Part shown: one piece after another, positions 1-26,606 of the stretch | How the letters are laid out: each line of letters opens with the position of its first letter | How positions within the stretch are numbered: the first letter of the stretch is position 1 | Source of the DNA: a virus | Taxonomy: Duplodnaviria > Heunggongvirae > Uroviricota > Caudoviricetes | IMG/VR virus record: IMGVR_UViG_648276670_000001 | Span: 1-29,531 of that record | DNA: 29,531 bases | Reading direction: 5' to 3' (one strand) | Translations under genes and position numbers: made by a program | The notes under the pieces: model-generated | Databases searched by the model: none | The model's input: the letters and a program-made list of their open reading frames with translations, nothing else | Told to the model about the DNA's origin: nothing

Positions 1-471
<471 letters not shown>

Positions 472-481
472 GTTTCCCTCC

Positions 482-2251
482 TCAGTTGCCGTTAACAATG
501 CTGATAACGCTGCTGCGGGCCGGCGTGGTCAGCGTGGCCATGACTTCATCCAGTGCGGCTTCCGGTACGCCGTCCGGATACTGTGCCGTTAACTGGCGGT
601 AATGTTCCGGCGTCCAGGTAAGGCCGTCGGCGCTGAACTTATCGCGCAGGGCTTTCGCGGCCTCCACATGAGTCATGGGACGTTGTTCAGTGCGCAGCCC
701 GCGTACGTCAGAGGCCTGACCTCGCTTCGGTATACAGGCCGGAAGTGTGGCGTCATCAATATGTTTATATGGGTCAAGCCGCCCGCCGAACGGCAGCGCC
801 TTCGCCTTGCGTGCGGCAGCTGCATCTGCGGCGTTGTCTGTACCGGTGACCAGCGCTTCGGTTTCTTTTGCCGCCATCTGCGCCGGGGTTTCCGGCAGGG
901 CTTTGTAACTTTCGCCAAATACCGCCGCGCTTTCAGCAAAGCCAAACTCGTTCTTTCTGACCTCTTCGACCAGGAAGAACGCCTCGTGGCCGTCCTCACC
1001 GGTCAGAACCACCTGTGCCACATCGCTGCGCCACGGGTTACGGGTAATCATCAGTTTTTCACCGACCAGTACGCCCGGTACCGTTGATACGTCAAATTCA
1101 GTGCCCCGGAACGAGACACGAAGTTTTGGCGTGACTTTGCGGAGTTCTGGTGTCGCCACAGCCAGTTCACGGCATACCTCAACGGAAGGCGCTTTTTTCA
1201 GCTGCTCAGCAGTAATCTTCAGCCAGATATCCGTGCGGGTTTTACCGTGGCGGCTGTGAACAGCCGTGGCGTTAAAGTGGCTGCGCCATTTCGCGGCCAG
1301 CGCGTTGAGTTCTTCCAGACTGTGAACCGGCCGGAACTTCAGACCCGGCTCCAGCTTGCGTTCGATAATGTCACGCGCCTTTTCCACCTGTCCGGTGGCG
1401 CGGGCGTTATGCGGCTTGTGTGCTATCAGGTCGATGCCCAGTGAGCGGCACATGTTTTTCGTCATACCCGCGGTGTTTGCCGAGCCGGGGTCGAGATAGA
1501 GTATTTTCGGCACGCCGTGCAGCACGTCTGCGCCGCCACGCTCCTGCATGGCGTTGATAAGCACAGAACACAGGTTCTCACCGGATTCCGCACCCGTCAC
1601 ATACTCAACGTAAATCCAGCCGCTGGCATGGTCGGTAATCTCGTAACTCCACACGCGGTCACTGGCGATACGGGCAAGGTTAGCGGGCTTGTTCTTGTAG
1701 AACTTCGCGCTGTCCATCACCTGCAGTCCTTTGTGTCCATTACTCAGGTAGTAAAGCGTGCAGAGCGAGGCATCAATCTGCCAGACATGATTGGGATGCA
1801 GACTGGCCACTTCAGTATGTGGTGCAGGGGCATCCAGTTGTTCCGGGTGCAGGCCATAGTTACGCAGGGCTCGGCTGATGGCATCTTCGGACAACGGGAA
1901 AAACTCACCGGTGGTTTCATCTGTTCTGCCTGCGGAGATAAAGCCGTTAGCCCGCAGGGTTTCCACTGCATCCGCGATGGAATAGAGACGCTTACCGTTC
2001 TTGCGGGTGGCCTCACGCAGTGTGGCAGATATCAGCGCGGCTTCGTCGCGGGTCAGGGCGCTGCGCCCGGCATCGGCGCGTTTTTTGCGTTTATCAGTCA
2101 CAGAGACCTCCTTCAGCCTGCGCAGCAGAGTGGCGCGGGACATGCCAAGTTCAGCACAGGCAGCGTCGTATATTGCACCGCGTTTACCATGCCCCGCGTC
2201 ACGTGCCGCGCGGGCGACATAAACCAGTCGTTCAGTCAGGGCAGCATTCAT
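482..2251 (-). CDS. DDE transposase, rve/integrase-core type (Tn552/BcepMu TnpA-like), 589 aa
   Basis: Long ORF with GGAGGC Shine-Dalgarno; catalytic-core-like motifs HVWQID, YLDPGSANT and GQVEKAR; sits in a Mu-like early operon immediately upstream of the B-like gene. Confidence 0.85.
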   Translation of the reverse strand: MNAALTERLVYVARAARDAGHGKRGAIYDAACAELGMSRATLLRRLKEVSVTDKRKKRADAGRSALTRDEAALISATLREATRKNGKRLYSIADAVETLRANGFISAGRTDETTGEFFPLSEDAISRALRNYGLHPEQLDAPAPHTEVASLHPNHVWQIDASLCTLYYLSNGHKGLQVMDSAKFYKNKPANLARIASDRVWSYEITDHASGWIYVEYVTGAESGENLCSVLINAMQERGGADVLHGVPKILYLDPGSANTAGMTKNMCRSLGIDLIAHKPHNARATGQVEKARDIIERKLEPGLKFRPVHSLEELNALAAKWRSHFNATAVHSRHGKTRTDIWLKITAEQLKKAPSVEVCRELAVATPELRKVTPKLRVSFRGTEFDVSTVPGVLVGEKLMITRNPWRSDVAQVVLTGEDGHEAFFLVEEVRKNEFGFAESAAVFGESYKALPETPAQMAAKETEALVTGTDNAADAAAARKAKALPFGGRLDPYKHIDDATLPACIPKRGQASDVRGLRTEQRPMTHVEAAKALRDKFSADGLTWTPEHYRQLTAQYPDGVPEAALDEVMATLTTPARSSVISIVNGN

Positions 2252-2254
2252 TGG

Positions 2255-3166
2255 TTATGCCTCCAGCCCGTTAATCTGTGGCGTCGGCTCAGTCAGCCAT
2301 GAAGGCGCTGCATTGCCTGTTGGCTCGTCCGGCAGGTCAAATGTGGAGCGCAGGCTACGCGCTGTGCTTTCCAGTTGACAGACCAGGCCTGCCATGAAGT
2401 CTCTGGGGGTATCAATCATGTTTTCAGCACAATATGCGCACAGTGTCTCAAAAGCGCTGGACAGTCGAACGGCGATAGCAGATTCCGCCTCAACCGCTAA
2501 TGCTGTCACTTCCGCCCGCAGCTTCTTAACCTCCTCATCAGGCTCAGGCGGCTGAATACGGGATTTCTTTTCCAGTCTGGTAGAGAGAGAATCAATTTTT
2601 TCATTTTTATCGGCGAGTACGCGCTGTTGTGCTGCGTTGGTTTCGCGCGCTTCGCGCAGGGCCTGGCGAAGTTCGCGTACTGACATGCGATCAACGTCGT
2701 CAAGCGTCAGGCCGGCAACTGTGCCGCCGTCAGCCAGTTCGGCAAGCTCTTCGTCGTCTTCTGTCATTAATTCGAAAAGTTTGGCTTTTCCCAAATGTGC
2801 CAACGTTGGCACATTTGGTTTCAGCGCCGGGGATAAGTATTTTGTCGATGCTTGCATCATTCTCACAGATGTCCGGTATGCCAGCCCCAACTCACTTTCA
2901 AGAATCTTTATAAACTCCCCGTGTGGTTCATTTTCCTTAAGGATTATCAGCCGCTTACCTGCCTCCAGCATGGCCTCAGCGCTCTGTGCCATATAAAAGC
3001 GTGCCTCATGGACAACACGATCGCGCTCATAGGGCAGACCATCGCCGAACTGTTGCATGATTTCCATGCGATGCTGTGTCATGGCGTTTAGACTGACATT
3101 GAGATCATCCGACAGCGGTACCTCGACGTTCAGTTCAGTGCTAACCGGTGATTTGGTGCGTCCCAT
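2255..3166 (-). CDS. Hypothetical early-operon protein, 303 aa, function unknown
   Basis: ORF with AAGGAG Shine-Dalgarno 6 nt upstream; stop abuts the transposase start; acidic, coiled-coil-rich sequence; no motif recognised. Confidence 0.6.
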   Translation of the reverse strand: MGRTKSPVSTELNVEVPLSDDLNVSLNAMTQHRMEIMQQFGDGLPYERDRVVHEARFYMAQSAEAMLEAGKRLIILKENEPHGEFIKILESELGLAYRTSVRMMQASTKYLSPALKPNVPTLAHLGKAKLFELMTEDDEELAELADGGTVAGLTLDDVDRMSVRELRQALREARETNAAQQRVLADKNEKIDSLSTRLEKKSRIQPPEPDEEVKKLRAEVTALAVEAESAIAVRLSSAFETLCAYCAENMIDTPRDFMAGLVCQLESTARSLRSTFDLPDEPTGNAAPSWLTEPTPQINGLEA

Positions 3167-3176
3167 TGATTACTCC

Positions 3177-3485
3177 TTACAAACGACTACCTGAAATAAC
3201 ACGTTGGTTGATTTCGTTAATGCGATCCTGTGCACGTGCCATCTCGTTACTGTGGGCCATGGCGATCTGCAGCAACTGGATGCCTGGTGCGAAACGCCCG
3301 TTTTCTAGTTTCAGAGCCAACCCTTCTTCAATGAGCGTGTTAAGTGCCCGGTTGATGTTTGCCGGTGATTCGTGCAGCGCAACCGCTAGTTCCCCGTTAG
3401 AAACACCGTTCAAAGCGTGGCCACGTAAGGCCTTAAGAACGCGCAAAATACGGGTACCTGAGCTTGATGTATTTGGTTTATTCAT
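3177..3485 (-). CDS. Small winged-helix/HTH transcriptional regulator, 102 aa
   Basis: AAGGAG Shine-Dalgarno; start overlaps the upstream gene stop (ATGA); HTH-like segment GVSNGELAVALHESPANINRALNTLIEEG. Confidence 0.55.
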   Translation of the reverse strand: MNKPNTSSSGTRILRVLKALRGHALNGVSNGELAVALHESPANINRALNTLIEEGLALKLENGRFAPGIQLLQIAMAHSNEMARAQDRINEINQRVISGSRL

Positions 3486-3712
3486 GACGCCTCCTTAAGG
3501 ATACCGGGGGTAACTTCTTTACCTATTGCAACCGATAGATCTCGCAAAATCCGATAAGTCAAACGACCGCGAGGTAGTTCACTTTTACCAGCCCAGCGAC
3601 TGACTGCCTGGGTGACTGTTCGTGGTTCATAGCCCGCGTTAAGCGCGAACTGGCGCAAGCTACTGCCTCGTTCAACCAGCCGTGCCCGAACTTGTTGTTT
3701 GTTCATATGCAC
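3482..3712 (-). CDS. ner: Ner-like small DNA-binding protein (Mu Ner/Nlp family), about 75 aa
   Basis: Size, position as first gene of the early operon divergent from the repressor, and HTH segment SLRQFALNAGYEPRTVTQAVSRW resembling Ner; start may be GTG 3710-3712 or ATG 3704-3706. Confidence 0.6.
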   Translation of the reverse strand: MHMNKQQVRARLVERGSSLRQFALNAGYEPRTVTQAVSRWAGKSELPRGRLTYRILRDLSVAIGKEVTPGILKEAS

Positions 3713-3794
3713 CGTGTTCCTGTTAGGTTATGATGTACTCTATTGGGTCTATTGTACACACCCAAATGAGTGTGTCAAATTGAGATATGTTCAA
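3713..3794. promoter_or_regulatory. Divergent early/repressor promoter-operator region
   Basis: AT-rich intergenic region between divergent ner-like and repressor genes; direct repeats TCTATTG at 3739-3745 and 3748-3754 flanked by TGTAC/GTACA, and ACACAC...GTGTGT inverted elements at 3756-3776. Confidence 0.4.
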
Positions 3795-4202
3795 ATGAGT
3801 ACAAAAGAGAGATTGCGTGAAGTGATGGATGCTAATGGCATGACAATAAAGGCATTATCTGACTTATCAAAAATTCCATATCGCTCACTTCAAAACTATT
3901 TGCGTGGAGAGAGAGAACCAAACGCAGAGGCTCTTGTTGCGCTAAGTGCCCATTTGGGTGTATCGATCGATTGGCTACTTACCGGTAAAGAACATATTCC
4001 ATCTAAAGAAATTGTTGCTGTACCAACACAACATCAATTCAGCCCGTCAGACCTTAAAATGCTTGAACTTCTAAACCAGTTAGATCCTGAGGTTCGGCGA
4101 GATCTCATGCGAGGCGCTGAAGAAAAACAGCGTGTGATTGAGATGGAAAAACAACTGAAGGAATTATCCGCAACGATTGAGCGGTTAAAAAATGTGGGTT
4201 AA
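3795..4202 (+). CDS. Prophage repressor-like XRE-family HTH protein, about 135 aa
   Basis: HTH motif TIKALSDLSKIPYRSLQNYLRGEREPNAEALVALSAHLGVSIDWLL plus C-terminal coiled coil; divergent from the early operon. The ORF-track start at TTG 3699 adds a hydrophobic extension that overlaps the operator region and is probably spurious. Confidence 0.7.
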   Translation: MSTKERLREVMDANGMTIKALSDLSKIPYRSLQNYLRGEREPNAEALVALSAHLGVSIDWLLTGKEHIPSKEIVAVPTQHQFSPSDLKMLELLNQLDPEVRRDLMRGAEEKQRVIEMEKQLKELSATIERLKNVG

Positions 4203-4272
4203 TGTGTTCCTAACGAGAACATATAGCAGAAATTATTTGCCATTAAGCAATAAAAAATAAGGTGGATAGCCA

Positions 4273-5280
4273 ATGTCTGAGCAGACCATTGAAGTTAAAC
4301 ACGTTGTAGTTCACATTTTAGACAAACAACAAAATGGAGACGCTTCTGAGAGATTGAGTCCTGAAGAAGGTCTAGTTACTGAAGCCTCTCAGCGCCTTAT
4401 AAACGATATTTGTGCAAAATATGCAGGACGCACAGGTAAAGGTTATGGCTATTTTGAAGGCGATACGGATAACTATCCTATGGAACGAATGGCTGGGGAC
4501 TTTCTCGAAGGTGTTGATGATTTCTACCAAAGTTCCTGCCGAATGATGCATCACCTGACGGAACGTTCTCAGCGAGAAAACATGGCTACTGGTGGTTATG
4601 TTCTTTTTGCAAATATCGTGATAGGACACAATGAACACCTGTTGATAGCTATTGTAAGCGCTACCATTGGGTCCACTGTCACAGATGATTTTAACATCCA
4701 AGATAGTACCTATCTTGATATTGCTAAGCTGCGTATGGCTGGGCGCATTGACTTAACCGCGTGGGAAAGTGGCGCAGAGCGCTATATCAGTTTTCTTAAG
4801 GGGCAAGGTAATGTTTCAAACTATTTTAAACAGTTCCTAGGCTGTAATGATGTCTTAATCGCCAAACGAGAGTCTGAAAAGTTACGTGACGTTTTAAAAG
4901 CATTTGCGGCAGAGAAAGGACTTGACGGCGCTGAAAAAGATGCATTTCTTAAGAGTGCGTTTGAACACTTACATGCACTAAGTAAGGCTGGTGAACCACT
5001 TAGTCTTGAAACCCTTGTTAATGCCATTTGGCCCCAGGCTCCCGAGGAGTTATCTGGTAAACTTGCTGCTGAAGAGTTGGAGTTATCGGATGGCTTCGTT
5101 CCTGATGGTCGAGTCATTCGGGCTCTGGTATCTTTTAAAGGCAAGTCTAAATATTGGGAACTTAAGTTTGACCGGGAAGGGAAAACTGAAGGCTATATTG
5201 ATTATGATCCGGAAACAAATATTATCACCCTACGTAATGTACCTGAAGAATTTAGGGAAATGTGGATGACTGAGGTTTAA
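4273..5280 (+). CDS. NdpA/YejK-family nucleoid-associated protein homolog, 335 aa
   Basis: AAGGTGGA Shine-Dalgarno 8 nt upstream; full-length resemblance to the YejK/NdpA family (GGYVLFANIV, TYLDIAKLRMAGRIDLTAWESGAERYISFLKGQG, C-terminal NIITLRNVPEEFRE); AT-rich codon usage unlike the flanking phage genes. Confidence 0.85.
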   Translation: MSEQTIEVKHVVVHILDKQQNGDASERLSPEEGLVTEASQRLINDICAKYAGRTGKGYGYFEGDTDNYPMERMAGDFLEGVDDFYQSSCRMMHHLTERSQRENMATGGYVLFANIVIGHNEHLLIAIVSATIGSTVTDDFNIQDSTYLDIAKLRMAGRIDLTAWESGAERYISFLKGQGNVSNYFKQFLGCNDVLIAKRESEKLRDVLKAFAAEKGLDGAEKDAFLKSAFEHLHALSKAGEPLSLETLVNAIWPQAPEELSGKLAAEELELSDGFVPDGRVIRALVSFKGKSKYWELKFDREGKTEGYIDYDPETNIITLRNVPEEFREMWMTEV

Positions 5281-5282
5281 TC

Positions 5283-6488
5283 GTGGCGATTTCATTTGAG
5301 ATGCTGACAGCTCTGTATCGTCGTATGGAATTCCAAGAGGGGTTTCGTGTCGGTTCGCTGTTGCTCTTAGATCAGTCCGATTGTGATCTGGTTGATACTT
5401 TGCTTGATGATCCTCGTGAATATGGTCTTTCTATTGATACAGGCACTATCGCTCCAGGTAACACGATCATCCTACGTGTGACGTCACCACGGAGTGGACT
5501 GGGACTTGTGTTTTCCACCCATGAAAAATTGCTAAATGCTCCAAAGCATCAGTGCCTTGAGCCAGCTAATTACTTCATCCTAGAAACAAAATTTCGTAAT
5601 GATGATGAAGATATCCCCGTTTTCATCAGCAACTACCGGAAGATTCTCGAGTTCGTTAACCTGCTAAAAGAGGCCGCGGCCTACTTTGATAACTCAACTT
5701 GTCAGTTAGTTTTTCTGAAAAAAGAAGTTATCAAGCTATTACCGCACTTCGCTGCAGAAAATGTACAAAATTTGCAAAGGGAGTATCTTGATAACCTTAT
5801 AGCTTGTTTCAATGATGATACCCATAAGGATCAGAAGCTAGATATTCTGATTGAAAGTATTCAAGCAGTTAGTGATGGAATTGATTCACCTCTAGTATTC
5901 GCTTATTTACTGGACAATATTCAGCGTCTGCATGAAAAGTTTCTGAAAGGGTATCGTATCTACTCTTCTGGATTCTCTTATGACAAAGTAATGGATCAAC
6001 TGCGTGCTGCAAAAGTCGAAGAAATGGGTAAAATCCACAAAGCGTTTTCAGATATCCAGAACCATATACTTGGCATTCCTGTTGCCTCTGTTATCGTAGC
6101 TACCCAATTCAAAGTGGCTACGAAATGGTCAGGCCAAGGGATAACAAACACAATAATTCTTCTGGGATGCATTTTTGCTGCAACGTTAATCTGGCTGGCA
6201 CTTTCGAACCAGATGCAATCTATAAAGGCCTTAGGCGAAGAAATTGAATACAAAGAAAAACAGATTAATAAGGAATATTCCTTCATTAAAGATGACGTGG
6301 CTGGTGTATTTAGCAGTATTTCTGCGCGACTAGACACGCAGAAACGTACGTTCTGGATTATACGTGGTGTTCTAGTTATGGGAATTATTACCGCTATCAC
6401 TGTTTATTTTTGGTACACAAAACCAGCCCTTGACTTCATGCAGTACTTGATTCACTGCATGAAGTCTTACTATTCGGTCAAAAGTTGA
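5283..6488 (+). CDS. Unknown 401-aa protein with two C-terminal transmembrane helices
   Basis: GTG start 2 nt after the NdpA-like stop with GAGG 7 nt upstream (translational coupling); hydrophobic helices ITNTIILLGCIFAATLIWLAL and FWIIRGVLVMGIITAITVYFWY; AT-rich; no catalytic motif recognised. Confidence 0.7.
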   Translation: MAISFEMLTALYRRMEFQEGFRVGSLLLLDQSDCDLVDTLLDDPREYGLSIDTGTIAPGNTIILRVTSPRSGLGLVFSTHEKLLNAPKHQCLEPANYFILETKFRNDDEDIPVFISNYRKILEFVNLLKEAAAYFDNSTCQLVFLKKEVIKLLPHFAAENVQNLQREYLDNLIACFNDDTHKDQKLDILIESIQAVSDGIDSPLVFAYLLDNIQRLHEKFLKGYRIYSSGFSYDKVMDQLRAAKVEEMGKIHKAFSDIQNHILGIPVASVIVATQFKVATKWSGQGITNTIILLGCIFAATLIWLALSNQMQSIKALGEEIEYKEKQINKEYSFIKDDVAGVFSSISARLDTQKRTFWIIRGVLVMGIITAITVYFWYTKPALDFMQYLIHCMKSYYSVKS

Positions 6489-7248
6489 GGATAATGAGTT
6501 CCTTCTTGCGACTGGATTTGCCAGTGATCTTGAGGTTGTAGCTGATATCAACCGACTGAATATTTAGACCGTTGAATGCCTGCCGCATTTCCGGGATATC
6601 GTTCACCGATATAATCATCTTCCCTTTGATCCTGCGTGCTAAATCTGCCATATGATCATAATTTTCTAGTCCGAACTCCACACCATAACCTTCCGTTCCC
6701 CAGTATGGAGGGTCACAGTAGAACAACGTATGCGGGCGATCATATCGTTCTATGCACTGTTGCCAGTCCATGTGTTCTATGACCGTTCTGGAAAGCCGCA
6801 GGTGTGCCGCTGACAGTTCTTCTTCAATACGCAGCAGGTTGAAGCGTGGCGGGGATATGGTGGAGGTACCAAAGCTGTGCTCCGCCACCTTGCCCCCAAA
6901 CGCCTGCTTCTGAAGGTAGTAGAACCGTGCTGCACGCTGGATATCCGTCAGTGTTTCTTCCGGGGTGATCTGCAGCCATTTGTAGATCTGCCGGCTGACC
7001 AGCGCCCATTTGAACTGGCGTACAAATTCTTCCAGATGATGTTTTACCACCCGATACAGGTTCACCAGCTCACCGTTGATATCATTAATGACTTCGATCT
7101 TGCCGGGTACCTTAAGAAAATAGAGCGCTGCTGCCCCACAAAACGGCTCCACATAACATTCATGCGCCGGAAACAGCGGCAGGATGTGTTTTGCAAGGCG
7201 GCGTTTGCCACCAATCCATGGAACGATGGGTAATGTCTGCATTTTCAT
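6478..7248 (-). CDS. dam: Dam-like N6-adenine DNA methyltransferase, 256 aa
   Basis: Motif I-like PFCGAAALYF and catalytic DPPY (YCDPPYWGTEGY) in the order typical of Dam-type enzymes; convergent with the upstream gene, 3' ends overlapping by 11 bp. Confidence 0.9.
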   Translation of the reverse strand: MKMQTLPIVPWIGGKRRLAKHILPLFPAHECYVEPFCGAAALYFLKVPGKIEVINDINGELVNLYRVVKHHLEEFVRQFKWALVSRQIYKWLQITPEETLTDIQRAARFYYLQKQAFGGKVAEHSFGTSTISPPRFNLLRIEEELSAAHLRLSRTVIEHMDWQQCIERYDRPHTLFYCDPPYWGTEGYGVEFGLENYDHMADLARRIKGKMIISVNDIPEMRQAFNGLNIQSVDISYNLKITGKSSRKKELIILNF

Positions 7249-17388: not shown

Positions 17389-17835
17389 ATGTACTGCACC
17401 CTGGAGGATTTGCTTGCGCAGGTGCCGGAACGAACGCTGATCGAGCTCACCAGTGAAGAGATGGACTTCGACTCGCCTGCAACAGTGAATACCCGTGTGG
17501 TGGACAGCTGTATCCGCTATGCCGACGAGCTGATTGATGCCCATCTGCGCGGACGCTATATCCTGCCACTGGCAGAGATACCGACTGTTCTGCGGGACAT
17601 TGCCATCACGCTGGTCCGTTACCGGCTCTACGCCCGCCGCCCGGAAGGTGACCTCCCGGATACGGTGAAGGATGACCACAAAGAAGCGCTGCGGCAACTC
17701 AGGGAGTTACGTGATAACAGGCTCACGCTGGGGCTGCCGTCCACTCAGAAAGATGTGCCTGAGCCTGGCGAGTTTCGTGTACGCAGCCGCCCGGCCACTT
17801 TCGGCGGTCGTGACGGTTTACTGGAGAAATACTGA
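17389..17835 (+). CDS. Phage head-completion / Mu gp36-like protein, about 148 aa
   Basis: ATG 17389 two nt after the upstream stop; the ORF-track start at 17227 overlaps the previous gene and is probably upstream read-through. Confidence 0.6.
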   Translation: MYCTLEDLLAQVPERTLIELTSEEMDFDSPATVNTRVVDSCIRYADELIDAHLRGRYILPLAEIPTVLRDIAITLVRYRLYARRPEGDLPDTVKDDHKEALRQLRELRDNRLTLGLPSTQKDVPEPGEFRVRSRPATFGGRDGLLEKY

Positions 17836-18299
17836 TGAACGTTCTGCCCGTCCTTGATGCGGTACTGGCCCGGTTACGCGAGAAGCTGCCGCAACTGCAG
17901 GTGGAGTACTTCCCGGAGAAACCGGCTGAATATCGCCTGAACCATCCGGTTGGCGCGTTGCTGCTGAGCTATGCCGGTTCGCGCTTTGACAGGCCGGATG
18001 ATACCGGTGCGGTGATCCAGTCTCAGACTATCCAGTTCTGCGTCACGGTGGTCTTCCGCCAGCTCAACGGTAAAAAAGGGGCGATTAATGTCCTGGATGC
18101 TGTCCGCCGCATTCTCGGCGGCCACACCCCGCCCGGCTGCCGCCGCCGTATCTGGCTGACCCGCGAGGTGTTTATCGGTGAAGTCAGGGGGCTGTGGCAA
18201 TACGCCCTCGACTTCGCGACTGAAAGCGTCTTTATCGAAGACAGCGATTTACTGTCCGGCCCGCTGTTAACCGAAGTGAACTATGAGGAAAGCGAGTGA
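17835..18299 (+). CDS. Phage protein, Mu gp37-like, 154 aa
   Basis: Start/stop overlap with neighbours; position between head and tail sheath genes. Confidence 0.6.
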   Translation: MNVLPVLDAVLARLREKLPQLQVEYFPEKPAEYRLNHPVGALLLSYAGSRFDRPDDTGAVIQSQTIQFCVTVVFRQLNGKKGAINVLDAVRRILGGHTPPGCRRRIWLTREVFIGEVRGLWQYALDFATESVFIEDSDLLSGPLLTEVNYEESE

Positions 18300-18550
18300 T
18301 GAAAGAATACCGCTATTCCGGCCCGGCCAGCGGCGTCACGCTGTCGGACGGAACCGAAATCCTGCTCTGGCCGGGGAAGACGGTTTCCCTGCCGGAGGAG
18401 CATGACTACGTGAAGGTACTGGTGGCGCTGAAGCATCTGACGCCGGTACCAGAAGATACTAAACCCGCCGTCACACCAGCTGTGCAGTCACCAAAGCGCA
18501 GAAGCAGCAGTGACAGCGAAGTGAAAACGGAGGACTCCCATGGCAGCTAA
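18299..18550 (+). CDS. Hypothetical phage protein, about 83 aa
   Basis: Short ORF tightly packed upstream of the sheath gene; overlaps the sheath start. Confidence 0.45.
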   Translation: MKEYRYSGPASGVTLSDGTEILLWPGKTVSLPEEHDYVKVLVALKHLTPVPEDTKPAVTPAVQSPKRRSSSDSEVKTEDSHGS

Positions 18551-19967
18551 CTATCTGCATGGCGTCGAAACCATTGAGGTGGAAAACGGAGCCCGCCCGG
18601 TTAAAACGGTGAAATCTGCCGTTATTGGCCTGATTGGTACCGCCCCGATGGGGGATGTCAATACGCTGGTACAGTGCCTGTCTGAGAAAGACGCTGCGGC
18701 ATTTGGCAGCCAGTTCACCGGCTTTACCATTCCGCAGGCGCTGGATGCGATTTATGACCATGGTGCAGGCACCGTTCTGGTCATTAACGTACTCGATCCG
18801 TCTGTGCATAAAACCGCTGTGGTCAGTGAGAATGTGTCGTTCGACAAGGCGACAGGCAGAGCCCGGCTGGCTAATCCGGTGGTCGCGCAGCTGGTACTGA
18901 AACCGGACAGCGACGGTCAGCCTTATGTTGAAGGTCAGGACTACTCGCTTGATGCACAGACCGGGGTGATTACTAACCTGGGTAAAAGCATTGCTGCAGA
19001 TGCAACGGTGAAGGCCAGCTATAACTATGCTGATCCGACCAAAGTCACCCCGGCTGATATCATCGGTACCGTTAACGCTGCAGGCAACCGTACCGGCATG
19101 AAGCTGCTTAACGACAGTTTTAACCTGTTTGGCTACTTCGCCAAAATCCTGATTGCTCCGGTATTCTGCACCCAGAACAGCGTCTCGGTTGAGCTTATCG
19201 CCATGGCTGAGAAACTGGGAGCAGTAACCTATATTGATGCGCCGGTTGGTACCACTTTTGCGCAGGCTCTGGCGGGACGTGGCCCGGAAGGCACCATTAA
19301 CTTTAATACCAGCTCTGACCGTGTCCGCCTGTGCTACCCGCATGTGAAGGTATATGACCCGGTGACGAACACGGAGCGTCTGGAGCCACTGAGCCAGCGT
19401 GCGGCGGGCCTGCGTGCCAAAGTCGACCTGGACAAAGGGTACTGGTGGTCATCCTCCAATCAGGAAATTCTGGGGATCACCGGCGTGGAGCGCCAGCTGT
19501 CGGCAATGATTGACGATCCGCAGAGCGAGGTGAACCTGCTTAACGAACAGGGGATCACCACGGTATTCAGCAGTTACGGCAGCGGCCTTCGTCTGTGGGG
19601 TAACCGGACGGCAGCATGGCCAACGGTCACCCATATGCGTAACTTTGAGAACGTTCGCCGCACCGGTGATGTGATCAACGAGTCCATTCGTTACTTCAGC
19701 CAGCAGTACATCGACATGCCGATTACTCAGGCGCTGATTGATGCACTGACGGAGTCGGTCAACGCCTACGGTCGCAAAATGACTGGTGATGGTGCGGTAC
19801 TGGGCTTCCGTTGCTGGTTTGATCCGGCCCGCAATCCGGAGACGGAGCTGGCCGCCGGGCACCTGTTGCTGAGCTACAAATATACGCCACCACCGCCGCT
19901 GGAGCGACTGACGTTTGAGACTGAAATCACCTCGGAATACCTGTTAACCCTGAAAGGGGGCAACTGA
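18540..19967 (+). CDS. Contractile tail sheath protein, 475 aa
   Basis: Size, position immediately before the tube gene, overall sheath-like sequence character. Confidence 0.85.
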   Translation: MAANYLHGVETIEVENGARPVKTVKSAVIGLIGTAPMGDVNTLVQCLSEKDAAAFGSQFTGFTIPQALDAIYDHGAGTVLVINVLDPSVHKTAVVSENVSFDKATGRARLANPVVAQLVLKPDSDGQPYVEGQDYSLDAQTGVITNLGKSIAADATVKASYNYADPTKVTPADIIGTVNAAGNRTGMKLLNDSFNLFGYFAKILIAPVFCTQNSVSVELIAMAEKLGAVTYIDAPVGTTFAQALAGRGPEGTINFNTSSDRVRLCYPHVKVYDPVTNTERLEPLSQRAAGLRAKVDLDKGYWWSSSNQEILGITGVERQLSAMIDDPQSEVNLLNEQGITTVFSSYGSGLRLWGNRTAAWPTVTHMRNFENVRRTGDVINESIRYFSQQYIDMPITQALIDALTESVNAYGRKMTGDGAVLGFRCWFDPARNPETELAAGHLLLSYKYTPPPPLERLTFETEITSEYLLTLKGGN

Positions 19968-20488
19968 TGTCAAAGATTGAGATAAACCGAATCACGAATG
20001 CCAACATCTATCTGGATGGTACTAACCTGCTGGGACGGGCTGAGGAAGTTAAACTCCCCGATGTCTCCATGATTATGCAGGAGCACAAGGCACTGGGGAT
20101 GGTGGGTAAGGTGGAACTCCCGGCTGGTTTTGACAAACTGGAAGGCGAAATCAAATGGAACAGCTTTTACCGCGATGCGATGTTGTCTGCCGCGAACCCG
20201 TACAAGTCGCTGGCGCTGCAGTGTCGCTCCAGCGTCCAGCGCTACAGCTCGCAGGGGCTGATCGACGAAATCCCGCTGGTCACCTTCCTGACAATTATGT
20301 TCAAGAAGAACCCGCTGGGGACGTTCAAACAGCACGAGAACGCCGAGTTCTCCAGTAGCTTCACCTGCACGTATATCAGACAGGTACTGGGTGGTGAAGA
20401 GTTGCTGCAACTGGACTATCTGGCCAACATCTTCCGCGTCGGTGGCGTTGATCAACTGACTGACTATCGAATCAATATCGGGGGCTGA
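19967..20488 (+). CDS. Tail tube protein, 173 aa
   Basis: Size and position directly after the sheath gene with overlapping start. Confidence 0.8.
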   Translation: MSKIEINRITNANIYLDGTNLLGRAEEVKLPDVSMIMQEHKALGMVGKVELPAGFDKLEGEIKWNSFYRDAMLSAANPYKSLALQCRSSVQRYSSQGLIDEIPLVTFLTIMFKKNPLGTFKQHENAEFSSSFTCTYIRQVLGGEELLQLDYLANIFRVGGVDQLTDYRINIGG

Positions 20489-20490
20489 CG

Positions 20491-20772
20491 GTGAGTGTTG
20501 AACTGACTGACAAAGGAGGGCGATGTGCGTCACTGGGCATGTCAAATGGTACGTGGTTTACCCTCCTTGATATTCCGGGGGTGGAGACCCTCTTTAATAC
20601 CCGTAAAACCAATGACCCGATTGACTGCACACGTTCAAAGGCCCGCAAACTGGCCGATTTGATTGAAGCATGGGAGCCGCCCGACCAGTGGTTCTCCGGC
20701 ACCGGCAAATCTGAGGGAAAGGCGCTTCTCATCGCTTTCCTGCGTAACTGCAAGGGTTTTCGCACTTGCTGA
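20491..20772 (+). CDS. Hypothetical protein, 93 aa
   Basis: GTG start 2 nt after the tube stop; followed by a GC hairpin; coding status uncertain. Confidence 0.4.
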   Translation: MSVELTDKGGRCASLGMSNGTWFTLLDIPGVETLFNTRKTNDPIDCTRSKARKLADLIEAWEPPDQWFSGTGKSEGKALLIAFLRNCKGFRTC

Positions 20773-20778
20773 CATCAC

Positions 20779-20800
20779 AGGGGCTCCGGCCCCTTCTTCT
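20779..20800 (+). terminator. Candidate weak intrinsic terminator
   Basis: Hairpin AGGGGC-TCCG-GCCCCT (20779-20794) followed by TCTTCTT. Confidence 0.3.
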
Positions 20801-20869
20801 TAATCCCCTTTAATATCCGTCACGTCCACCGCCAGACATACTGCTCTGAATTTACAAAGGAGTATGATC

Positions 20870-21205
20870 ATGTCACAGACCCAGTCCGATACTTTTACGC
20901 TGTCTTATCCTTTCACCACTGCTGCAGGTACCAGAATTGAACAGATTGAACTGAAACGCCTGACAGTAAAAGACCTGAAGCAGGTGCGCAAAATCAACAA
21001 AGACCCGACAGACTGGGACGAACCACTGATTGCCCGTAGCACCGGTATCCTCCCGGAAGACCTCGATAACATGGATCTTGCCGACTATATGGAGCTGCAG
21101 AAACGATTTCAGAAAATCACTGGGCTGGGCAAGAGCGACAAAAACACTGATGCAGGTGCAGGGCCTGCTGGCGAGATGGTTCAGGTTTCAACCGGGGGAG
21201 ATTGA
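20870..21205 (+). CDS. Tail assembly chaperone (P2 gpE / lambda gpG analogue)
   Basis: AAGGAG Shine-Dalgarno 7 nt upstream of ATG 20870; located between tube and tape-measure genes; an overlapping downstream ORF in another frame suggests a frameshift extension. Confidence 0.65.
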   Translation: MSQTQSDTFTLSYPFTTAAGTRIEQIELKRLTVKDLKQVRKINKDPTDWDEPLIARSTGILPEDLDNMDLADYMELQKRFQKITGLGKSDKNTDAGAGPAGEMVQVSTGGD

Positions 21206-21287
21206 TGCCCTCGATACTGACGATCTGGAGATGTGGCTGGAGCAGGCTGAAGAGCAAATCAAAAGCGAGTTCGGCGACAATCAGTAA
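20870..21287 (+). CDS. Predicted frameshift-extended chaperone product (E+E-prime-like); shift to the +1 (equivalently -2) frame near 21194-21198
   Basis: ORF 21030-21287 overlaps the 3' end of the chaperone ORF; its tail EIDALDTDDLEMWLEQAEEQIKSEFGDNQ looks protein-like; run GGGGG at 21194-21198 lies two codons before the chaperone stop. Confidence 0.45.
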
Positions 21288-21300
21288 CAACGTATCACTT

Positions 21301-21323
21301 AACAGCCGCCAGTCGCGGCTGTT
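21301..21323 (+). other. Perfect 9-bp stem hairpin upstream of the tape-measure gene
   Basis: AACAGCCGC-CAGTC-GCGGCTGTT; a T7 run follows only about 30 nt downstream at 21353-21359, so not a canonical terminator. Confidence 0.3.
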
Positions 21324-21379
21324 CTGCATGGGTTTCAGACACTTCCCTTCCGTTTTTTTGCTTTCAGAGGATAGCCACC

Positions 21380-23845
21380 GTGGCCAGTGAATTTTCAGTC
21401 GGCGTCATTATTGGCGGCATTGTCGGGAGCAGCTTCCGCTCAGCCGTCAGTGGCACCCGACGCGCCCTTGATTCCCTTGGTGATACCTCCCGCCGTCTGC
21501 AGGAACGCCAGAATGCCTTAACCCGGGCAACAGAACGTTATGGTCAACTGGGTTCTTCCCGGATGCAGCATCTCAACAGCGAGTTGCTGCGGGTAAGCCG
21601 CACCATGGAGCAAATTGAACGTCAGCAGCGCCGTCTGTCAGCAGTATCAGCCACCGGTGATGCGTTGAAGGCTAACCGCCTGGCGCTCTATGGTCAGGGT
21701 GCAGAAACCTATGCTATTGGCAGAACGCTGGGCGCACCGGTCATGGCCTCGGTTAAACAATATGCCTCGTTTGAATCACAGTTGCGGGATATCAGTGTCA
21801 CAGGAGACCTGGATGCAAAACAGGAACGTGCAATTGGCCAGGCTATCAGACAGGCCTCGCTGAAGGTTAACCAACTGCAGGAGTCTCTGTTAGGGGGAGT
21901 CGGACAATTAGTTGCTGATGGTATGGCCCCCGAACGGGCAGCAACGTTTGCAGAGATGCTTGGAAAGACCGCTACAGCAACCAAAGCCGATATGACCGAC
22001 CTTGCCAAAATGACTTATGCCTTCAGCGATGCACTCAGAATCACTGATGCGAAAGAACTTGAACAGGCGTTTGGTATTGCGGCAACAGGAGCCAAACTTG
22101 GGTCATTTGAGCTGAAGGATATGGCAAAAGCATTACCCGGTATGGCTAAAGCCTTCGCTGCTCGTGGTATTTATGGAAAAGATGCGATTACCCAGATTGT
22201 TGCCAGTCTGGAGGTCGGTAAAGGTAGTGGCTCTGCAGAGGAAGCGGTCACCAATATGTCCAACTGGCTGGCAGCAATGGGCCGCGGAGATACCATCCAG
22301 AAATATGCTAAAGCCGGGGTGGATTACCAGGGGTCAATGCAGAATTACGTCGCTCAGGGTTTTTCGCAGTACGAAGCTTCACTGATGATTGCCAACCGTT
22401 TTATCGACAGTAAAGGCAAAGCGTTCTTGCAGCAATGGAAAGCTGCAGGAGCAAGAGGCGATCAGGAAGGTCAGCAGAAACTCATGGAGTCATTTGGTCT
22501 GGCTGAGGTCTTTACCGATATTCAGACTGTCAACCATTTACTGTCAATGCGACAGGGCTGGGATAAATACCTTTCCAGTAAGCAGGAAATGAATGCTCCG
22601 GCTGCAATTTCTACCCTGGATAAGGATGCTGCAAAGCAGAATGATACGCTTGAAGGTCGCTGGCGCAGAATGCAGATCGGCTTTAATGATTCTGCTATCA
22701 GCATCGGGCAATCCTTGCGTCCGGCTTTGCTCCAGTTGGGTGAAACATTTATTCCTTTAATGGACAGTGTTGGCAAATGGATAGCGGCAAATCCGCAGCT
22801 CGTCAGCAGCACCATAAAGGTTGTGGGCGCATTACTCGCTTTCAGGATGGCCACTATCGGTCTCAAGCTTGGGCTGAATCTCCTTCTTTCCCCCTTTGTA
22901 AGCGTCTGGAAAAATGCTGTTTTACTTCGGGCCAACTGGCTTCGTCTGACGCTCGCACTGGGGGAAGGCGGTAAACTCCGCTGGCTGGTGACAGGCTTTG
23001 GTGCTGTCGCCAGAGGAGCCAGAACACTGGGTGGTGTGCTCTCAGGGGGGCTGGTTCGCGGAATTATGAGCGCCGGGCGTGCCGTTCTCTGGATTGGCCG
23101 GGCGCTGCTGATGAATCCCATCGGTCTCGTTATCACCGCCGTCGCGGCAGCAGCTTACCTTATCTACCGCAACTGGGGCGCAGTCAGTAGCTGGTTTAAA
23201 CAGCGCTGGGCTGACATTCAGGAAGCCTTTAACGGCGGCATCGTGGGAACTGGTAAACTGCTGGTTAACTGGTCTCCGGCTGGTCTGCTTTATAAAGCCT
23301 TTGCGGCTGCGCTGAAATATCTCGGCGTTGATCTGCCGGCGAAATTCACCGACTTCGGTGGTCATCTTATTGACGGGTTGATAAATGGCATCAGAAACAA
23401 ATGGGCGTCACTCAAAACCAGCGTAACCGGAATGGGTGACAGCATCAGTGACTGGTTCAGCGAAAAGCTGGGCATCCATTCACCGAGTCGCGTGTTTATG
23501 GGCTTTGGTGACAATATCGCGCAGGGTGCCGCCATTGGCCTGCAACGGACCACTCCGCTTGCTGCACTGGCCGGGCAGCGCCTGGCCGCTGAAATGACAC
23601 CGGATGTTCCCCGTATCCCGTCGCCGGAAATCATGGCTGCCGGATATTCAGGCCGTGGTGCAACGGCAACTGGCGGTGGAGCGTCTGGCGGTATCCAGGT
23701 CAGCTTTAATCCTCAGTTTTTCCTCAATGGTAAGGAAACCGCAGCGCCTGCCGGGCTGACTGGTGCCCTGAATATGAGCCTGCATGAGCTGGAAAAAATG
23801 CTGGAGCGTCTGCTGGCTCAGAAACAACGTAAGGAGTACAGCTGA
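21380..23845 (+). CDS. Tail tape measure protein, 821 aa
   Basis: GTG start with AGAGGA Shine-Dalgarno; large helical protein with a central hydrophobic segment, directly downstream of the chaperone pair. Confidence 0.8.
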   Translation: MASEFSVGVIIGGIVGSSFRSAVSGTRRALDSLGDTSRRLQERQNALTRATERYGQLGSSRMQHLNSELLRVSRTMEQIERQQRRLSAVSATGDALKANRLALYGQGAETYAIGRTLGAPVMASVKQYASFESQLRDISVTGDLDAKQERAIGQAIRQASLKVNQLQESLLGGVGQLVADGMAPERAATFAEMLGKTATATKADMTDLAKMTYAFSDALRITDAKELEQAFGIAATGAKLGSFELKDMAKALPGMAKAFAARGIYGKDAITQIVASLEVGKGSGSAEEAVTNMSNWLAAMGRGDTIQKYAKAGVDYQGSMQNYVAQGFSQYEASLMIANRFIDSKGKAFLQQWKAAGARGDQEGQQKLMESFGLAEVFTDIQTVNHLLSMRQGWDKYLSSKQEMNAPAAISTLDKDAAKQNDTLEGRWRRMQIGFNDSAISIGQSLRPALLQLGETFIPLMDSVGKWIAANPQLVSSTIKVVGALLAFRMATIGLKLGLNLLLSPFVSVWKNAVLLRANWLRLTLALGEGGKLRWLVTGFGAVARGARTLGGVLSGGLVRGIMSAGRAVLWIGRALLMNPIGLVITAVAAAAYLIYRNWGAVSSWFKQRWADIQEAFNGGIVGTGKLLVNWSPAGLLYKAFAAALKYLGVDLPAKFTDFGGHLIDGLINGIRNKWASLKTSVTGMGDSISDWFSEKLGIHSPSRVFMGFGDNIAQGAAIGLQRTTPLAALAGQRLAAEMTPDVPRIPSPEIMAAGYSGRGATATGGGASGGIQVSFNPQFFLNGKETAAPAGLTGALNMSLHELEKMLERLLAQKQRKEYS

Positions 23846-24690
23846 TGTTTGCCGTACTGGGTGATATTGAGTTTGAACTGATTACCTACTGGGACGGCTT
23901 CGAGGCCACGTTCGGCGTCGATTATGCGGAGCATGCCCGCATCGAGGGTAAACCCGGCCTGCAGTTTGTCGGCGACAGGCTGGACGAAATCCAGATAAGC
24001 CTGGTCTTCCATCAGCATTATTGTGTGCCCGACGTGGAGCTGGCGAGAGTGCGAACAGCCATGAAGGCCCATCAGGCACTGGCGCTGGTCTTCGGCAACG
24101 GTGACTATCGCGGCTGGTTCGTGATTACCGATGTGACCGCAACCAGCGAGCAGACAGACAGCACCGGTAACGTGCTGGCTGTCAGTGCCACCGTGTCTCT
24201 CCGGGAATACACCGGTGACCCGAAAAATCCTCTGCAACCGCCGGCAATACGCAGGCAGGTTCCCGGTGCCGGAGCTGTATCGGGTGCTGTTCCATCGCCT
24301 TCCGGGGTGGCGCAGTTCGTCCGTAACGGCGTCAACTATGCGAAACAGGCGCAGTCTGTACTCCAGACCACTATCAGTGCCGTTCGGGTGGCGCAGAAAA
24401 TGAAGGGTAACCCCGTTGTCGCGCTGACCCGTGTGCCTGGACTGATGAGCGGACTGGGTAATATATCCGGAGCTCTGGGGAAAAGTGTTCCGGCGTTTAA
24501 TGCACTCTCTGAATCCATGCCCGATGCCATCAGTCTGGCCAGAACAGCCAGTGAGGCAGCCACGTATGTACAGCAGGCGCAGTCGGCGCTGAGTGGTGTG
24601 GACAAAAGAATATTGCAGGTGCTCTGGATACCGTTTCCGGGCAGCTTAACGCCGCCGGCACAGCATTCAACCGCATGTCTCCGGGATTAA
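23845..24690 (+). CDS. Tail protein with P2 gpU-like N-terminal domain (Mu N position) and an Ala/Ser/Gly-rich C-terminal extension, 281 aa
   Basis: N-terminal 130 aa (MFAVLGDIEFELITYWDG...GLQFVGDRLDEIQISLVF...) resemble the gpU tail protein family; start overlaps the tape-measure stop. Confidence 0.6.
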   Translation: MFAVLGDIEFELITYWDGFEATFGVDYAEHARIEGKPGLQFVGDRLDEIQISLVFHQHYCVPDVELARVRTAMKAHQALALVFGNGDYRGWFVITDVTATSEQTDSTGNVLAVSATVSLREYTGDPKNPLQPPAIRRQVPGAGAVSGAVPSPSGVAQFVRNGVNYAKQAQSVLQTTISAVRVAQKMKGNPVVALTRVPGLMSGLGNISGALGKSVPAFNALSESMPDAISLARTASEAATYVQQAQSALSGVDKRILQVLWIPFPGSLTPPAQHSTACLRD

Positions 24691-24727
24691 GTGCAATGGC
24701 CGCCAGAATACTGACGAGGAGTGTGTG

Positions 24728-24940
24728 ATGTTTCTTGAACATATTACCCGTGACGGAGAGCGCTGGGATTCGCTGGCATGGCAGTACTACGGTGACCCGC
24801 TGGGCTATCCCCGGATTATTGCAGCCAATCCGCACGTGGCCATTACGCCGGTGCTGCCCTCCGGGGTGTTGTTACTGATCCCGGTTATTGAGGCTGAAGA
24901 TGCCCGCACAGAAGAGGATATTGCCCCATGGCTGAGATAA
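24728..24940 (+). CDS. Tail protein X-like (P2 gpX family), 70 aa
   Basis: GAGGAG Shine-Dalgarno 6 nt upstream; gpX-like pattern GERWDSLAWQYYGDPLGYPRIIAANPHVA...LPSGVLLLIP. Confidence 0.75.
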   Translation: MFLEHITRDGERWDSLAWQYYGDPLGYPRIIAANPHVAITPVLPSGVLLLIPVIEAEDARTEEDIAPWLR

Positions 24941-26082
24941 ACAGTACTGCGCAAGACGTATCAGCGTTAACCGGCGTCAGCGATGTGCTGACGCCGGTGT
25001 TCACTCTGTGGTATCTGCAGAAAAATATCACCTCTGATATCGCGCCTTATGTCACCCGTGTGACCTGGAGCGATAACATCAAAAATGAGTCCGATACCAT
25101 TGAGGTGGAGCTGGATGACACCGATGGTCGCTGGCTGGATAAGTGGTATCCGGGCAAGGGTGACACGCTGACGCTGAAAATGGGTTATCAGGGCGAGAAA
25201 CTGCTGTCCTGCGGTACATTCTCAATAGACGAGATCGAAGTGAGTTCGCCCGCGTCCGTTGTCGCTATCCGTGGGGTGGCCACCTCGGTTAACAGTGCTC
25301 TGCGGACTAAATCCAGCCGTGGTTTTGAGAACACCACGCTGGCAGCTGTTGCGGGGCGGATTGCCAGAAAGCACCGACTGAAACTGGTGGGCAGCATTGA
25401 GTCCATCAAAATCGACCGGGTGACCCAGTATGCTGAAACCGACGTGGGTTTTCTGCGCCGGCTGGCCAGCGAGTATGGTTATGCAGTGAAAGTGGTCAGT
25501 GACCAGTTGATTTTTTCTCATCTGGCCACACTGCGCAGTCAGGAGCCGGTCAGGCAGTTAAAACCGCAGGATGTGGCCCGCTTTTCCCTGCGTGACACCA
25601 TCAACCGGGTCTATAAATCTGCAAAGGTAAAACACCAGAAAAGCAGCAGTAAAAAACTGATCGTCTACGAAGCTGATGGTGGTACCCGTGAAAGCGACAA
25701 AAAGCTCAAAGGTGGTAAGGTTACCAGCGCTGACTCACTTAAAGTTAACAGCCGTGTCAGCGACCCGGACAGTGCCCGGATTAAAGCGGATTCAGCACTG
25801 GCCAGACATAACGAATACCAGCAGAACGGCTCCCTGACGCTGACGGGAACGCCTCAACTGACAGCAGGCAACAAAATTGAACTGGTGGGCTTTGGACAGT
25901 TATCCGGTCCATGGCTGATAATCACTGCCCGCCATGCGTTTGAGCGTAACAGCGGCTACACCACAGAGCTGGAAGTGGCACGGGGGCCAGTCACAAGAGG
26001 GAAAAAACAAAAAACTCAGAAACTCACGGTTTATCACCCGGATGGCAGTACATCGACGGTGATTAAGGAGAAGAAAAAATGA
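24928..26082 (+). CDS. Tail protein D-like (P2 gpD / Mu P family), 384 aa
   Basis: Size and position after the X-like gene and before the V-like spike gene; overlapping start. Confidence 0.75.
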   Translation: MAEINSTAQDVSALTGVSDVLTPVFTLWYLQKNITSDIAPYVTRVTWSDNIKNESDTIEVELDDTDGRWLDKWYPGKGDTLTLKMGYQGEKLLSCGTFSIDEIEVSSPASVVAIRGVATSVNSALRTKSSRGFENTTLAAVAGRIARKHRLKLVGSIESIKIDRVTQYAETDVGFLRRLASEYGYAVKVVSDQLIFSHLATLRSQEPVRQLKPQDVARFSLRDTINRVYKSAKVKHQKSSSKKLIVYEADGGTRESDKKLKGGKVTSADSLKVNSRVSDPDSARIKADSALARHNEYQQNGSLTLTGTPQLTAGNKIELVGFGQLSGPWLIITARHAFERNSGYTTELEVARGPVTRGKKQKTQKLTVYHPDGSTSTVIKEKKK

Positions 26083-26606
26083 CTGGTGTCACCCGTCAGG
26101 TCGGTACGGTCAGTGCCGTTGATGCCGACAGGGTTCAGGCCCGCGTTCGTCTGCCTGAATGCGATAATCTGCGCACAAACTGGCTTAACGTGCTACAGCG
26201 CAATACCCAGGATAACAAGGATTACTGGCTCCCTGACGTGGGGGAGCAGGTTGAGGTGCTGCTCGATGCCAACGGCGAGGATGGTGTTATTCTGGGCGCG
26301 GTGTACTCAGACGTCGATAAACCGCCGTTCAGTGATAAAAACGTCCGGGGTACGAAATACGCTGATGGCGCGGAGTTCAGTTATAACCGCGCGACCCATA
26401 CGCTGACGGTCAGAGGAGGTATTGAGCGTATCGTGGTGGAGGTTGCCGCTGATATCTCTCTCAAAGGGAAAAAACTCGACCTCACGGGAGTTACCACGAT
26501 CAACGGCCCCGCGACACTCAATGGTGATCTGGAAATCAACGGAAGCGCCCATGCAACGGGTAACATATTTGCTGATGGTCAGAACTCTAATCACCATTCC
26601 CATTGA
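26079..26606 (+). CDS. Baseplate spike / assembly protein V-like, 175 aa
   Basis: gpV-like N-terminus (VGTVSAVDADRVQARVRL...NWLNVLQ...YWLPDVGEQVEVLLDANGEDGVILGAVYSD). Confidence 0.8.
   Translation: MTGVTRQVGTVSAVDADRVQARVRLPECDNLRTNWLNVLQRNTQDNKDYWLPDVGEQVEVLLDANGEDGVILGAVYSDVDKPPFSDKNVRGTKYADGAEFSYNRATHTLTVRGGIERIVVEVAADISLKGKKLDLTGVTTINGPATLNGDLEINGSAHATGNIFADGQNSNHHSH

Follow-up and report, generated by a model that had tools for sequence, protein, structure and literature searches.

Transposable phages with an inverted early operon and a non-Mu transposase reportedly entered the literature with Burkholderia phage BcepMu and Pseudomonas phage B3 in 2004, and a further survey followed in 2018. 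The present study concerns positions 482-4202 of a 29,531-nucleotide stretch of viral DNA, IMGVR_UViG_648276670_000001, which is called the window throughout and which ends short of both ends of the prophage. In BcepMu, genes 1-13 occupy the bottom strand, with genes 17-52 on the top strand, and the transposase has been described as "a distant member of the Tn552-IS1604 family" (PMC2771037, PMC5977238); the layout of two divergent arms with a transposase other than that of Mu is described in PMC2771037, PMC2628397, and PMC5977238. The region at 482-4202 very probably serves immunity and the early functions (transposition) in the prophage of a BcepMu-type transposable myovirus (Bcepmuvirus), of a kind common in Escherichia coli. 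It is a textbook BcepMu-type early region and already known; the sole trait specific to this copy is the knockout of its B-like gene by the insertion sequence (IS) IS100.

By tblastn, 28 of the 36 window proteins match BcepMu, colinear and in the same orientation, including those of the P2-like tail. The late genes account for 24 of these matches, at 28-77% identity; the sheath is 77% identical, the tube 67%, and the baseplate is also matched. Mu matches five window genes, four for the head (TerL 49%, gp30/F 48%, portal 27%, and G 29% identity) and one for the baseplate. A layout like that of BcepMu and unlike that of canonical Mu had been proposed for this locus, and the 28 colinear genes against five agree with it in both respects. 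Matches to B3 (tblastn) cover the early, lysis, and head genes but stop short of the tail, with no tail gene at 17835-28675 matched, and because the tail matches BcepMu and no part of it matches B3, the prophage is assigned to the BcepMu-type myoviruses rather than to the B3-type siphoviruses. Escherichia phage PhiKM, the nearest cultured relative, is classified in Bcepmuvirus. The order of the early cassette, with a Ner-like gene, a winged helix-turn-helix (HTH) gene of about 100 amino acids, a gene for a protein of about 300 amino acids, TnpA, and TnpB, is kept in BcepMu, B3, phiSHP3, Lsp-JY19, and Bise. The features of the window are the following.

1-320, plus strand: right end of IS100 (IS21 family), 100% identity by megablast, with the IstB C-terminus at 69-254.
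321-471, minus strand: stub of a B-like ATPase gene (phrog_296; homology to BcepMu gp08 and B3 ORF11).
482-2251, minus strand: TnpA, 589 amino acids (Pfam rve, phrog_310).
2255-3166, minus strand: DUF3102 protein, 303 amino acids (PF11300, phrog_1748).
3177-3485, minus strand: winged-helix IclR-type HTH protein, 102 amino acids (HTH_IclR, phrog_1368).
3482-3712, minus strand: small HTH protein in the Ner/Cro position, 76 amino acids (phrog_8503, sub-threshold HTH matches).
3751-3778, minus strand: candidate early promoter Pe (sigma-70 consensus scan).
3737-3771, no strand: candidate operator, an inverted repeat (repeat search).
3795-4202, plus strand: CI/Cro-type HTH_3 repressor, 135 amino acids (HTH_3, Phage_CI_repr, phrog_4).
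7463-28675, plus strand: genes for lysis, the head, and a P2-like contractile tail, colinear with BcepMu genes 21-51.

All five open reading frames (ORFs) of the original prediction were located at these coordinates by the ORF map and family scans, each with strong homologues. The map gives a compact leftward gene string at 482-3712, with ORFs of 589, 303, 102, and 76 amino acids, facing the rightward ORF of 135 amino acids, which confirms the proposed leftward early operon divergent from a rightward repressor. The spacing of neighboring genes in the string is +10 nucleotides between the stub and TnpA, +3 between TnpA and the 303-amino acid protein, +10 between the latter and the 102-amino acid protein, and -4 between the 102- and 76-amino acid proteins. 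The repressor and all late genes had been expected to run rightward. This holds for the repressor and for every structural and lysis gene at 7463-28675, but not for a Dam methylase gene at 6478-7248, to the right of the repressor and on the minus strand. Whole-window Rfam and tRNA scans found no RNA genes, and PADLOC had zero matches among the early genes.

The transposase, TnpA, matches Pfam rve at 35.7 bits (cutoff 32.6) and phrog_310, annotated as transposase, with an E value of 4e-146. It is 68% identical to BcepMu gp09 and 56% identical to B3 TnpA (ORF12), with at least 98% of the length aligned. In a tblastn search of 50,697 phage records it matched 69, all of them BcepMu-like or B3-like transposable phages, including PhiKM (97.6% identity) and Phi06_2974 B (92.9%); Mu was not among them. 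The protein has an N-terminal HTH region, the rve core, and then a predicted beta-barrel region. The catalytic triad D160, D254, and E290 is invariant across an alignment of TnpA from six phages and lines up with the core of Tn552 p480, and the earlier label of rve-type DDE transposase is borne out by this triad together with the rve and phrog_310 matches.

The placement of TnpA among transposase families was examined with pairwise and profile comparisons. MuA was beyond reach of both (BLASTP E value 0.26; hhalign probability 0.3% for the six-phage TnpA profile), and while MuA has the Pfam domains DDE_2, HTH_Tnp_Mu_1, HTH_Tnp_Mu_2, and Mu-transpos_C, window TnpA and BcepMu gp09 have rve only. 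Tn552 p480, with the reference sequence taken from plasmid pN315, shares 23% identity with TnpA over the core in the pairwise alignment (E value 5e-5), and hhalign with the TnpA profile gives 96.3% (E value 1.8e-9) over 229 columns that cover the core and the barrel region following it. Mu-transpos_C (PF09299) is found in p480 at 62.7 bits, while window TnpA has no Pfam match to it at an E value of 0.01 or below; the hhalign alignment nonetheless extends through the Mu-transpos_C region of p480, to residue 410. A tblastn search of 72,556 plasmids with TnpA turned up IS481-family transposases by the hundred, about 26% identical to it over residues 30-388 (about 360 residues), and Staphylococcus was absent from the ten most frequent genera. 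The TnpA profile aligns with the IS481-family rlgA of pSLT at 99.4% in hhalign (E value 3.8e-21), over 381 columns that include the N-terminal HTH region. IS481 (NF033577) is also the top-ranked NCBIfam model for TnpA, at 67.2 bits against a cutoff of 224, which makes TnpA related to this family but not a member. Searches of solved structures with the single sequence and with the six-sequence profile found retroviral integrase cores only, at E values of about 1e-5; MuA and TnsB were not found in them, and they gave no finer placement.

By these comparisons TnpA is a predicted rve-type DDE transposase of the BcepMu/B3 clade, with IS481-like enzymes as its nearest non-phage relatives, Tn552 more distant, and MuA beyond detection. 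The original prediction had called it Tn552-like rather than MuA-like. With 68% identity to BcepMu gp09 and MuA undetected, it does not cluster with MuA, and a remote kinship with Tn552 is present, but the IS481 family is closer. A stand-alone IS481 or Tn552 element was also considered and is rejected, the transposase being embedded in a complete phage gene set.

Two small regulators precede the DUF3102 protein and TnpA in the operon. The 102-amino acid protein matches HTH_IclR at 24.8 bits (cutoff 22), which supports its earlier description as an HTH regulator, and phrog_1368, a transcriptional regulator, with an E value of 2e-44; it is 35% identical to BcepMu gp12 and 56% identical to B3 ORF14. 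The 76-amino acid protein is encoded by the first leftward gene, which overlaps the 102-amino acid gene by 4 nucleotides and starts at GTG 3712 or, as relatives are annotated, at ATG 3706 (74 amino acids). It matches phrog_8503 with an E value of 5e-35. The description of this protein as Ner-like is weakly supported: it has the position and a faint match to Mu Ner (BLASTP E value 6e-4 over 42 residues), but it falls below the cutoffs of HTH_35 (PF13693; 17.6 against 25 bits) and TIGR04111 (BcepMu_gp16; 28.9 against 34 bits) and has no pairwise similarity to BcepMu gp16.

The repressor, with a likely start at ATG 3795, occupies the position of BcepMu gp17. It matches HTH_3 (E value 2e-12), Phage_CI_repr (E value 2e-6), and phrog_4, a transcriptional repressor, and its identity to gp17 is 27% over the HTH only (E value 2e-5). 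An 82-bp gap separates it from the leftward operon. Upstream of the operon is a leftward sigma-70-like site at 3778-3751, with TTGACA and TACAAT separated by 16 nucleotides and 11 of 12 positions matching the consensus. An inverted repeat, ACTCTATTGGGT at 3737-3748 and ACCCAAATGAGT at 3760-3771, overlaps this candidate promoter; its arms are 12 nucleotides long, 83% complementary, and 11 nucleotides apart, and we infer that it is a candidate operator. In Klebsiella phage KP12 the control region is nearly identical to that of the window, while in PhiKM, with TnpA 97.6% identical, the DUF3102 protein is only 76% identical and the control region is unrelated, which fits a control region that is immunity-specific. 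The early operon is also mosaic in its relationship to BcepMu and B3: TnpA is nearer to BcepMu (68% against 56%), while the DUF3102 and winged-helix proteins are nearer to B3 (52% and 56% against 41% and 35%). Such apparent mosaicism with unlike control proteins is the usual pattern of heteroimmune relatives.

The left end of the window is not phage DNA. Positions 1-320 are 100% identical by megablast to IS100 copies annotated as "IS21-like element IS100kyp family helper ATPase IstB," with the C-terminus of IstB at 69-254 (Pfam IstB_IS21, E value 8e-24), and everything to the left of IS100 lies beyond the window. The right end of the IS stops with TTGACA at position 320, inside the phage B-like gene and antisense to the early operon. 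When the junction is read against the uninterrupted prophage of E. coli MS20655, the B-like gene starts at 471 and keeps codons 1-50; the frame then runs through a few codons of the IS and stops at 298. A search of 5,426 complete E. coli genomes found this junction in none of them. The stub begins 10 nucleotides past TnpA, directly downstream, as expected of a BcepMu-type TnpB; it matches phrog_296, DNA transposition protein (E value 7e-11), and is 43% identical to the N-terminus of BcepMu gp08 (E value 4e-11) and 49% identical to B3 ORF11. Its intact homologue in the MS20655 prophage (L005:10989-12155) is an ExeA-family AAA+ protein of 388 amino acids with AAA_22 at an E value of 4e-20, without Phage-MuB_C and with a pairwise E value of 2.3 against MuB. 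The gene had been described as B-like; the homology of the stub places it in the ExeA/AAA_22 family, but it is not intact, being cut by IS100 after 50 of 388 codons.

With 50 codons left before IS100, the predicted B-like protein is null. In Mu, MuB is required for efficient replicative transposition. Downstream early genes in relatives, as in the MS20655 prophage, encode Gam, GemA-like, and Mor-family proteins. Because of the roles of MuB and Mor in Mu, the insertion should by analogy abolish efficient replicative transposition and has probably abolished late-gene activation as well, and the early module of this copy is probably dead and the prophage immobilized by IS100.

A mechanism consistent with these observations can be proposed. 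The CI-like repressor (3795-4202, plus strand) and a strong leftward promoter (about 3778-3751) would face each other over the 82-bp control region, and loss of the repressor would allow transcription of the leftward operon, in the order Ner/Cro-position HTH protein, IclR-type winged-helix protein, DUF3102 protein, TnpA with D160/D254/E290, and the ExeA-like AAA+ ATPase in the role of MuB. In intact relatives, TnpA would then cut the 5'-TG...CA-3' ends of the phage and insert it with a 6-bp target duplication. In the window copy, IS100 lies after ATPase codon 50 in the opposite orientation to the operon, which would leave no B-like protein, and it probably keeps the early genes farther downstream (Gam, GemA, and Mor in relatives) from being expressed. 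The prophage would most likely be fixed where it is, with its repressor and cargo genes still expressed.

The 303-amino acid protein had been left without a function in the original prediction. It now has a family, DUF3102/gp10 (PF11300, 30.5 bits against a gathering threshold of 24.4; phrog_1748, E value 1e-139). The DUF3102 model matched five of six aligned phage homologues, and the protein is 41% identical to BcepMu gp10 and 52% identical to B3 ORF13. A homologue of about 300 amino acids is encoded immediately upstream of TnpA in all nine relatives inspected, including BcepMu, B3, phiSHP3, Lsp-JY19, Bise, PhiKM, KP12, and MS20655, and in those relatives a winged HTH gene of about 100 amino acids precedes it. 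Among phage records the protein is found in 68 and TnpA in 69, with the same taxon counts, and its exact sequence is present on at least 1,000 contigs. Two homologue searches with it returned nearly all E. coli copies, at 82-100% identity; a third, with a profile lacking E. coli and B3 sequences, gave a 41-sequence alignment. The AlphaFold2 model built on this alignment is all-helical, with a predicted local distance difference test (pLDDT) score of 69.5, an N-terminal domain at 20-111 that contains a putative HTH (about residues 65-111, with the helix-turn-helix itself at 84-111), and a long helical hairpin at 163-275. The profile had one insignificant match among PDB sequences (2x48, E value 0.6), hhalign against 20 Mu early proteins found nothing, and fold searches with the model gave no informative match.

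In Pseudomonas phages JBD25, JBD67, Fc02, and others (B3-related), only the hairpin, residues 177-280, is found upstream of TnpA and the N-terminal domain is replaced, which hints that the hairpin may be the part of DUF3102 that is tied to the transposase. A DUF3102-like match was also seen in the Streptococcus satellite Javan410, where the gene context is uninformative. Its gene invariably lies directly upstream of a TnpA of this type, and on that ground the DUF3102 protein might be a DNA-binding accessory of transposition or of the early module, a tentative suggestion based on gene linkage only. A more specific and rather doubtful idea is that DUF3102, possibly with the IclR-type protein, is an obligatory and unstudied cofactor of BcepMu/B3-type transposases that stands in for the N-terminal end- and enhancer-binding domains of MuA; the linkage to TnpA in nine of nine elements, the co-occurrence across phage groups, and the retention of the hairpin where the N-terminal domain has been swapped would fit this idea.

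The head genes that match Mu, the faint resemblance of the first early gene to Ner, and the shared lifestyle could suggest the early region of a classical Mu-type (Muvirus) prophage whose transposase belongs to the MuA family and which is simply drawn the other way round. No similarity to MuA is detectable and none of its four Pfam domains is present, the B-like protein has no Phage-MuB_C, the early operon runs divergently from the late genes rather than co-directionally with them as in Mu, and the P2-like tail matches BcepMu. A classical Mu prophage is refuted by synteny, the MuA comparisons, and domain content, and we give it next to no probability. The early module by itself cannot separate the BcepMu type from the B3 type (Beetrevirus), whose layout is likewise divergent and whose cassette is the same, and the DUF3102 and winged-helix proteins are closer to those of B3. 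TnpA is nearer to BcepMu, however, and the tail genes match the contractile tail of BcepMu and none of B3. On the tail genes and the identity of TnpA, a B3-type siphovirus prophage is rejected as very improbable.

A BcepMu-type early region could still be functional despite IS100 if the ATPase were dispensable, came in trans from another copy of the prophage, or were regained when the IS excised precisely. The ORFs for the transposase, DUF3102, both HTH proteins, and the repressor are unbroken, with about 99% identity to their counterparts in prophages that lack an interruption, and several matching places occur in some of the E. coli genomes. Only 50 of 388 ATPase codons remain before the IS, MuB is needed for efficient transposition in Mu, and the IS, in antisense orientation, separates the promoter from the early genes farther downstream, among them the Mor-family late activator in relatives. 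A functional module is considered unlikely.

Several points weigh against parts of the favored interpretation, a BcepMu-type early module immobilized by IS100. The assignment of the first early gene as Ner-like fails every curated threshold, and Ner-like action is read from gene position only. The promoter is a consensus match and the operator a repeat match, each no more than a candidate. Neither structure nor profile searches lent support to DNA binding by DUF3102 or to its contact with TnpA. That the ExeA-like ATPase would be essential is argued by analogy with MuB in Mu replication, and read-through of IS100 or an outward IS100 promoter might relieve the block. The left arm and whatever follows codon 50 of the B gene, if present, lie outside the window, as would any TG...CA ends of this copy.

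Close relatives of the prophage are frequent. At least 80% of window positions 1-4300 is present in 62 of 5,426 complete E. coli genomes, in which uninterrupted prophages are about 99% identical. The MS20655 prophage is 99.3% identical at the nucleotide level over window positions 317-29374, past which the window diverges from it. It splits the gene of a 4Fe-4S protein and has the ends 5'-TGATTAGAC...GGCGCATCA-3' (TG...CA; L005 6600-6640 and L013 6440-6470), flanked on both sides by the 6-bp duplication ACGACC. For B3/Tn552-family transposases, the reported footprint is TG...CA ends together with a 6-bp duplication (PMC8705779). These ends, seen outside the window, are evidence that the family does transpose in E. 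coli. The motif TGAGATAAAT(G/T)ACA, noted by eye, recurs near both ends of the MS20655 prophage and is a candidate TnpA site. At the other end of the window, positions 29160-29382, the joint between the constant and variable parts of the tail fiber, match four places in the MS20655 prophage (L013 7156-8789) that adjoin a gene of a recombinase family (L013 6523-7095); these repeats suggest a multi-cassette invertible tail-fiber region, which BcepMu reportedly does not have.

Cargo genes are found between the repressor and the holin. Two rightward genes of low GC content (41% against about 56% around them), at 4273-5280 and 5283-6488, encode a YejK/NA37-like nucleoid-associated protein (NAP) and a 401-amino acid protein with a weak KwaA-like match at its C-terminus. 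Against the NCBIfam antiphage models DS1_1 and DS1_2 the pair scores 63.7 of 330 and 75.9 of 315 bits, far under the cutoffs. It resembles the "PANGU type II" defense systems of a 2026 preprint, with a NAP sensor and a membrane effector, and may be a candidate prophage-borne defense system. The Dam-family adenine methylase gene (6478-7248, minus strand) lies between this pair and the holin; its product is 66% identical to B3 ORF48, which sits in the tail region of B3, and because this homologue is in another place, the methylase looks like a mobile module within the phage group.

The locus carries little weight in itself. Dozens of complete E. coli genomes have annotated prophages about 99% identical to it. 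For annotation, three points are of use: this copy is probably immobilized by IS100 yet keeps its repressor and candidate defense cargo; the label "Tn552-like" understates the closer kinship of the transposase to the IS481 family; and the conserved DUF3102 partner of this transposase family is still without a function.

In comparison with described systems, the window has the same two-arm layout as BcepMu and its enterobacterial kin, PhiKM (PQ738613), the KP12 contig (OM835952), and the MS20655 prophage. Shared with BcepMu are TnpA (68%), gp10/DUF3102 (41%), the winged-helix gp12 (35%), the gp08 ATPase, and the colinear lysis, head, and P2-like tail genes. BcepMu genes 11 and 13-15 have no counterpart in the window, and the cargo between repressor and holin, with the YejK-like gene, the membrane-protein gene, and Dam, is unlike that of BcepMu. 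The protein in the Ner position and the repressor are essentially unrelated in sequence to those of BcepMu, which suggests an immunity type other than that of BcepMu. The IS100-interrupted B-like gene is found in the window and in no other record examined. B3 (Beetrevirus) shares the inverted early operon and its cassette of an HTH gene, a regulator of about 100 amino acids, DUF3102 ORF13, TnpA ORF12, and TnpB ORF11, but it is a siphovirus whose tail genes are unmatched, and two extra early genes, ORF15 and ORF16, stand between its first HTH gene and its regulator.

Mu has in common with the window a transposable temperate lifestyle, a switch of repressor and Ner type beside the transposase, an AAA+ target-capture ATPase, and homologous terminase, portal, F, and G head genes. 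In Mu, however, early operon and late genes run in one direction and the repressor alone is divergent, while in the window the early operon is divergent; MuB and the window-type B-like ATPase have only the generic AAA_22 domain in common, and Mu has neither a DUF3102 protein nor an IclR-type regulator. With Tn552 p480 and the IS481 family, the window TnpA shares the rve DDE core at a pairwise identity of just 23-26%; unlike those enzymes, it has a C-terminal extension of about 170 residues and works inside a phage genome.

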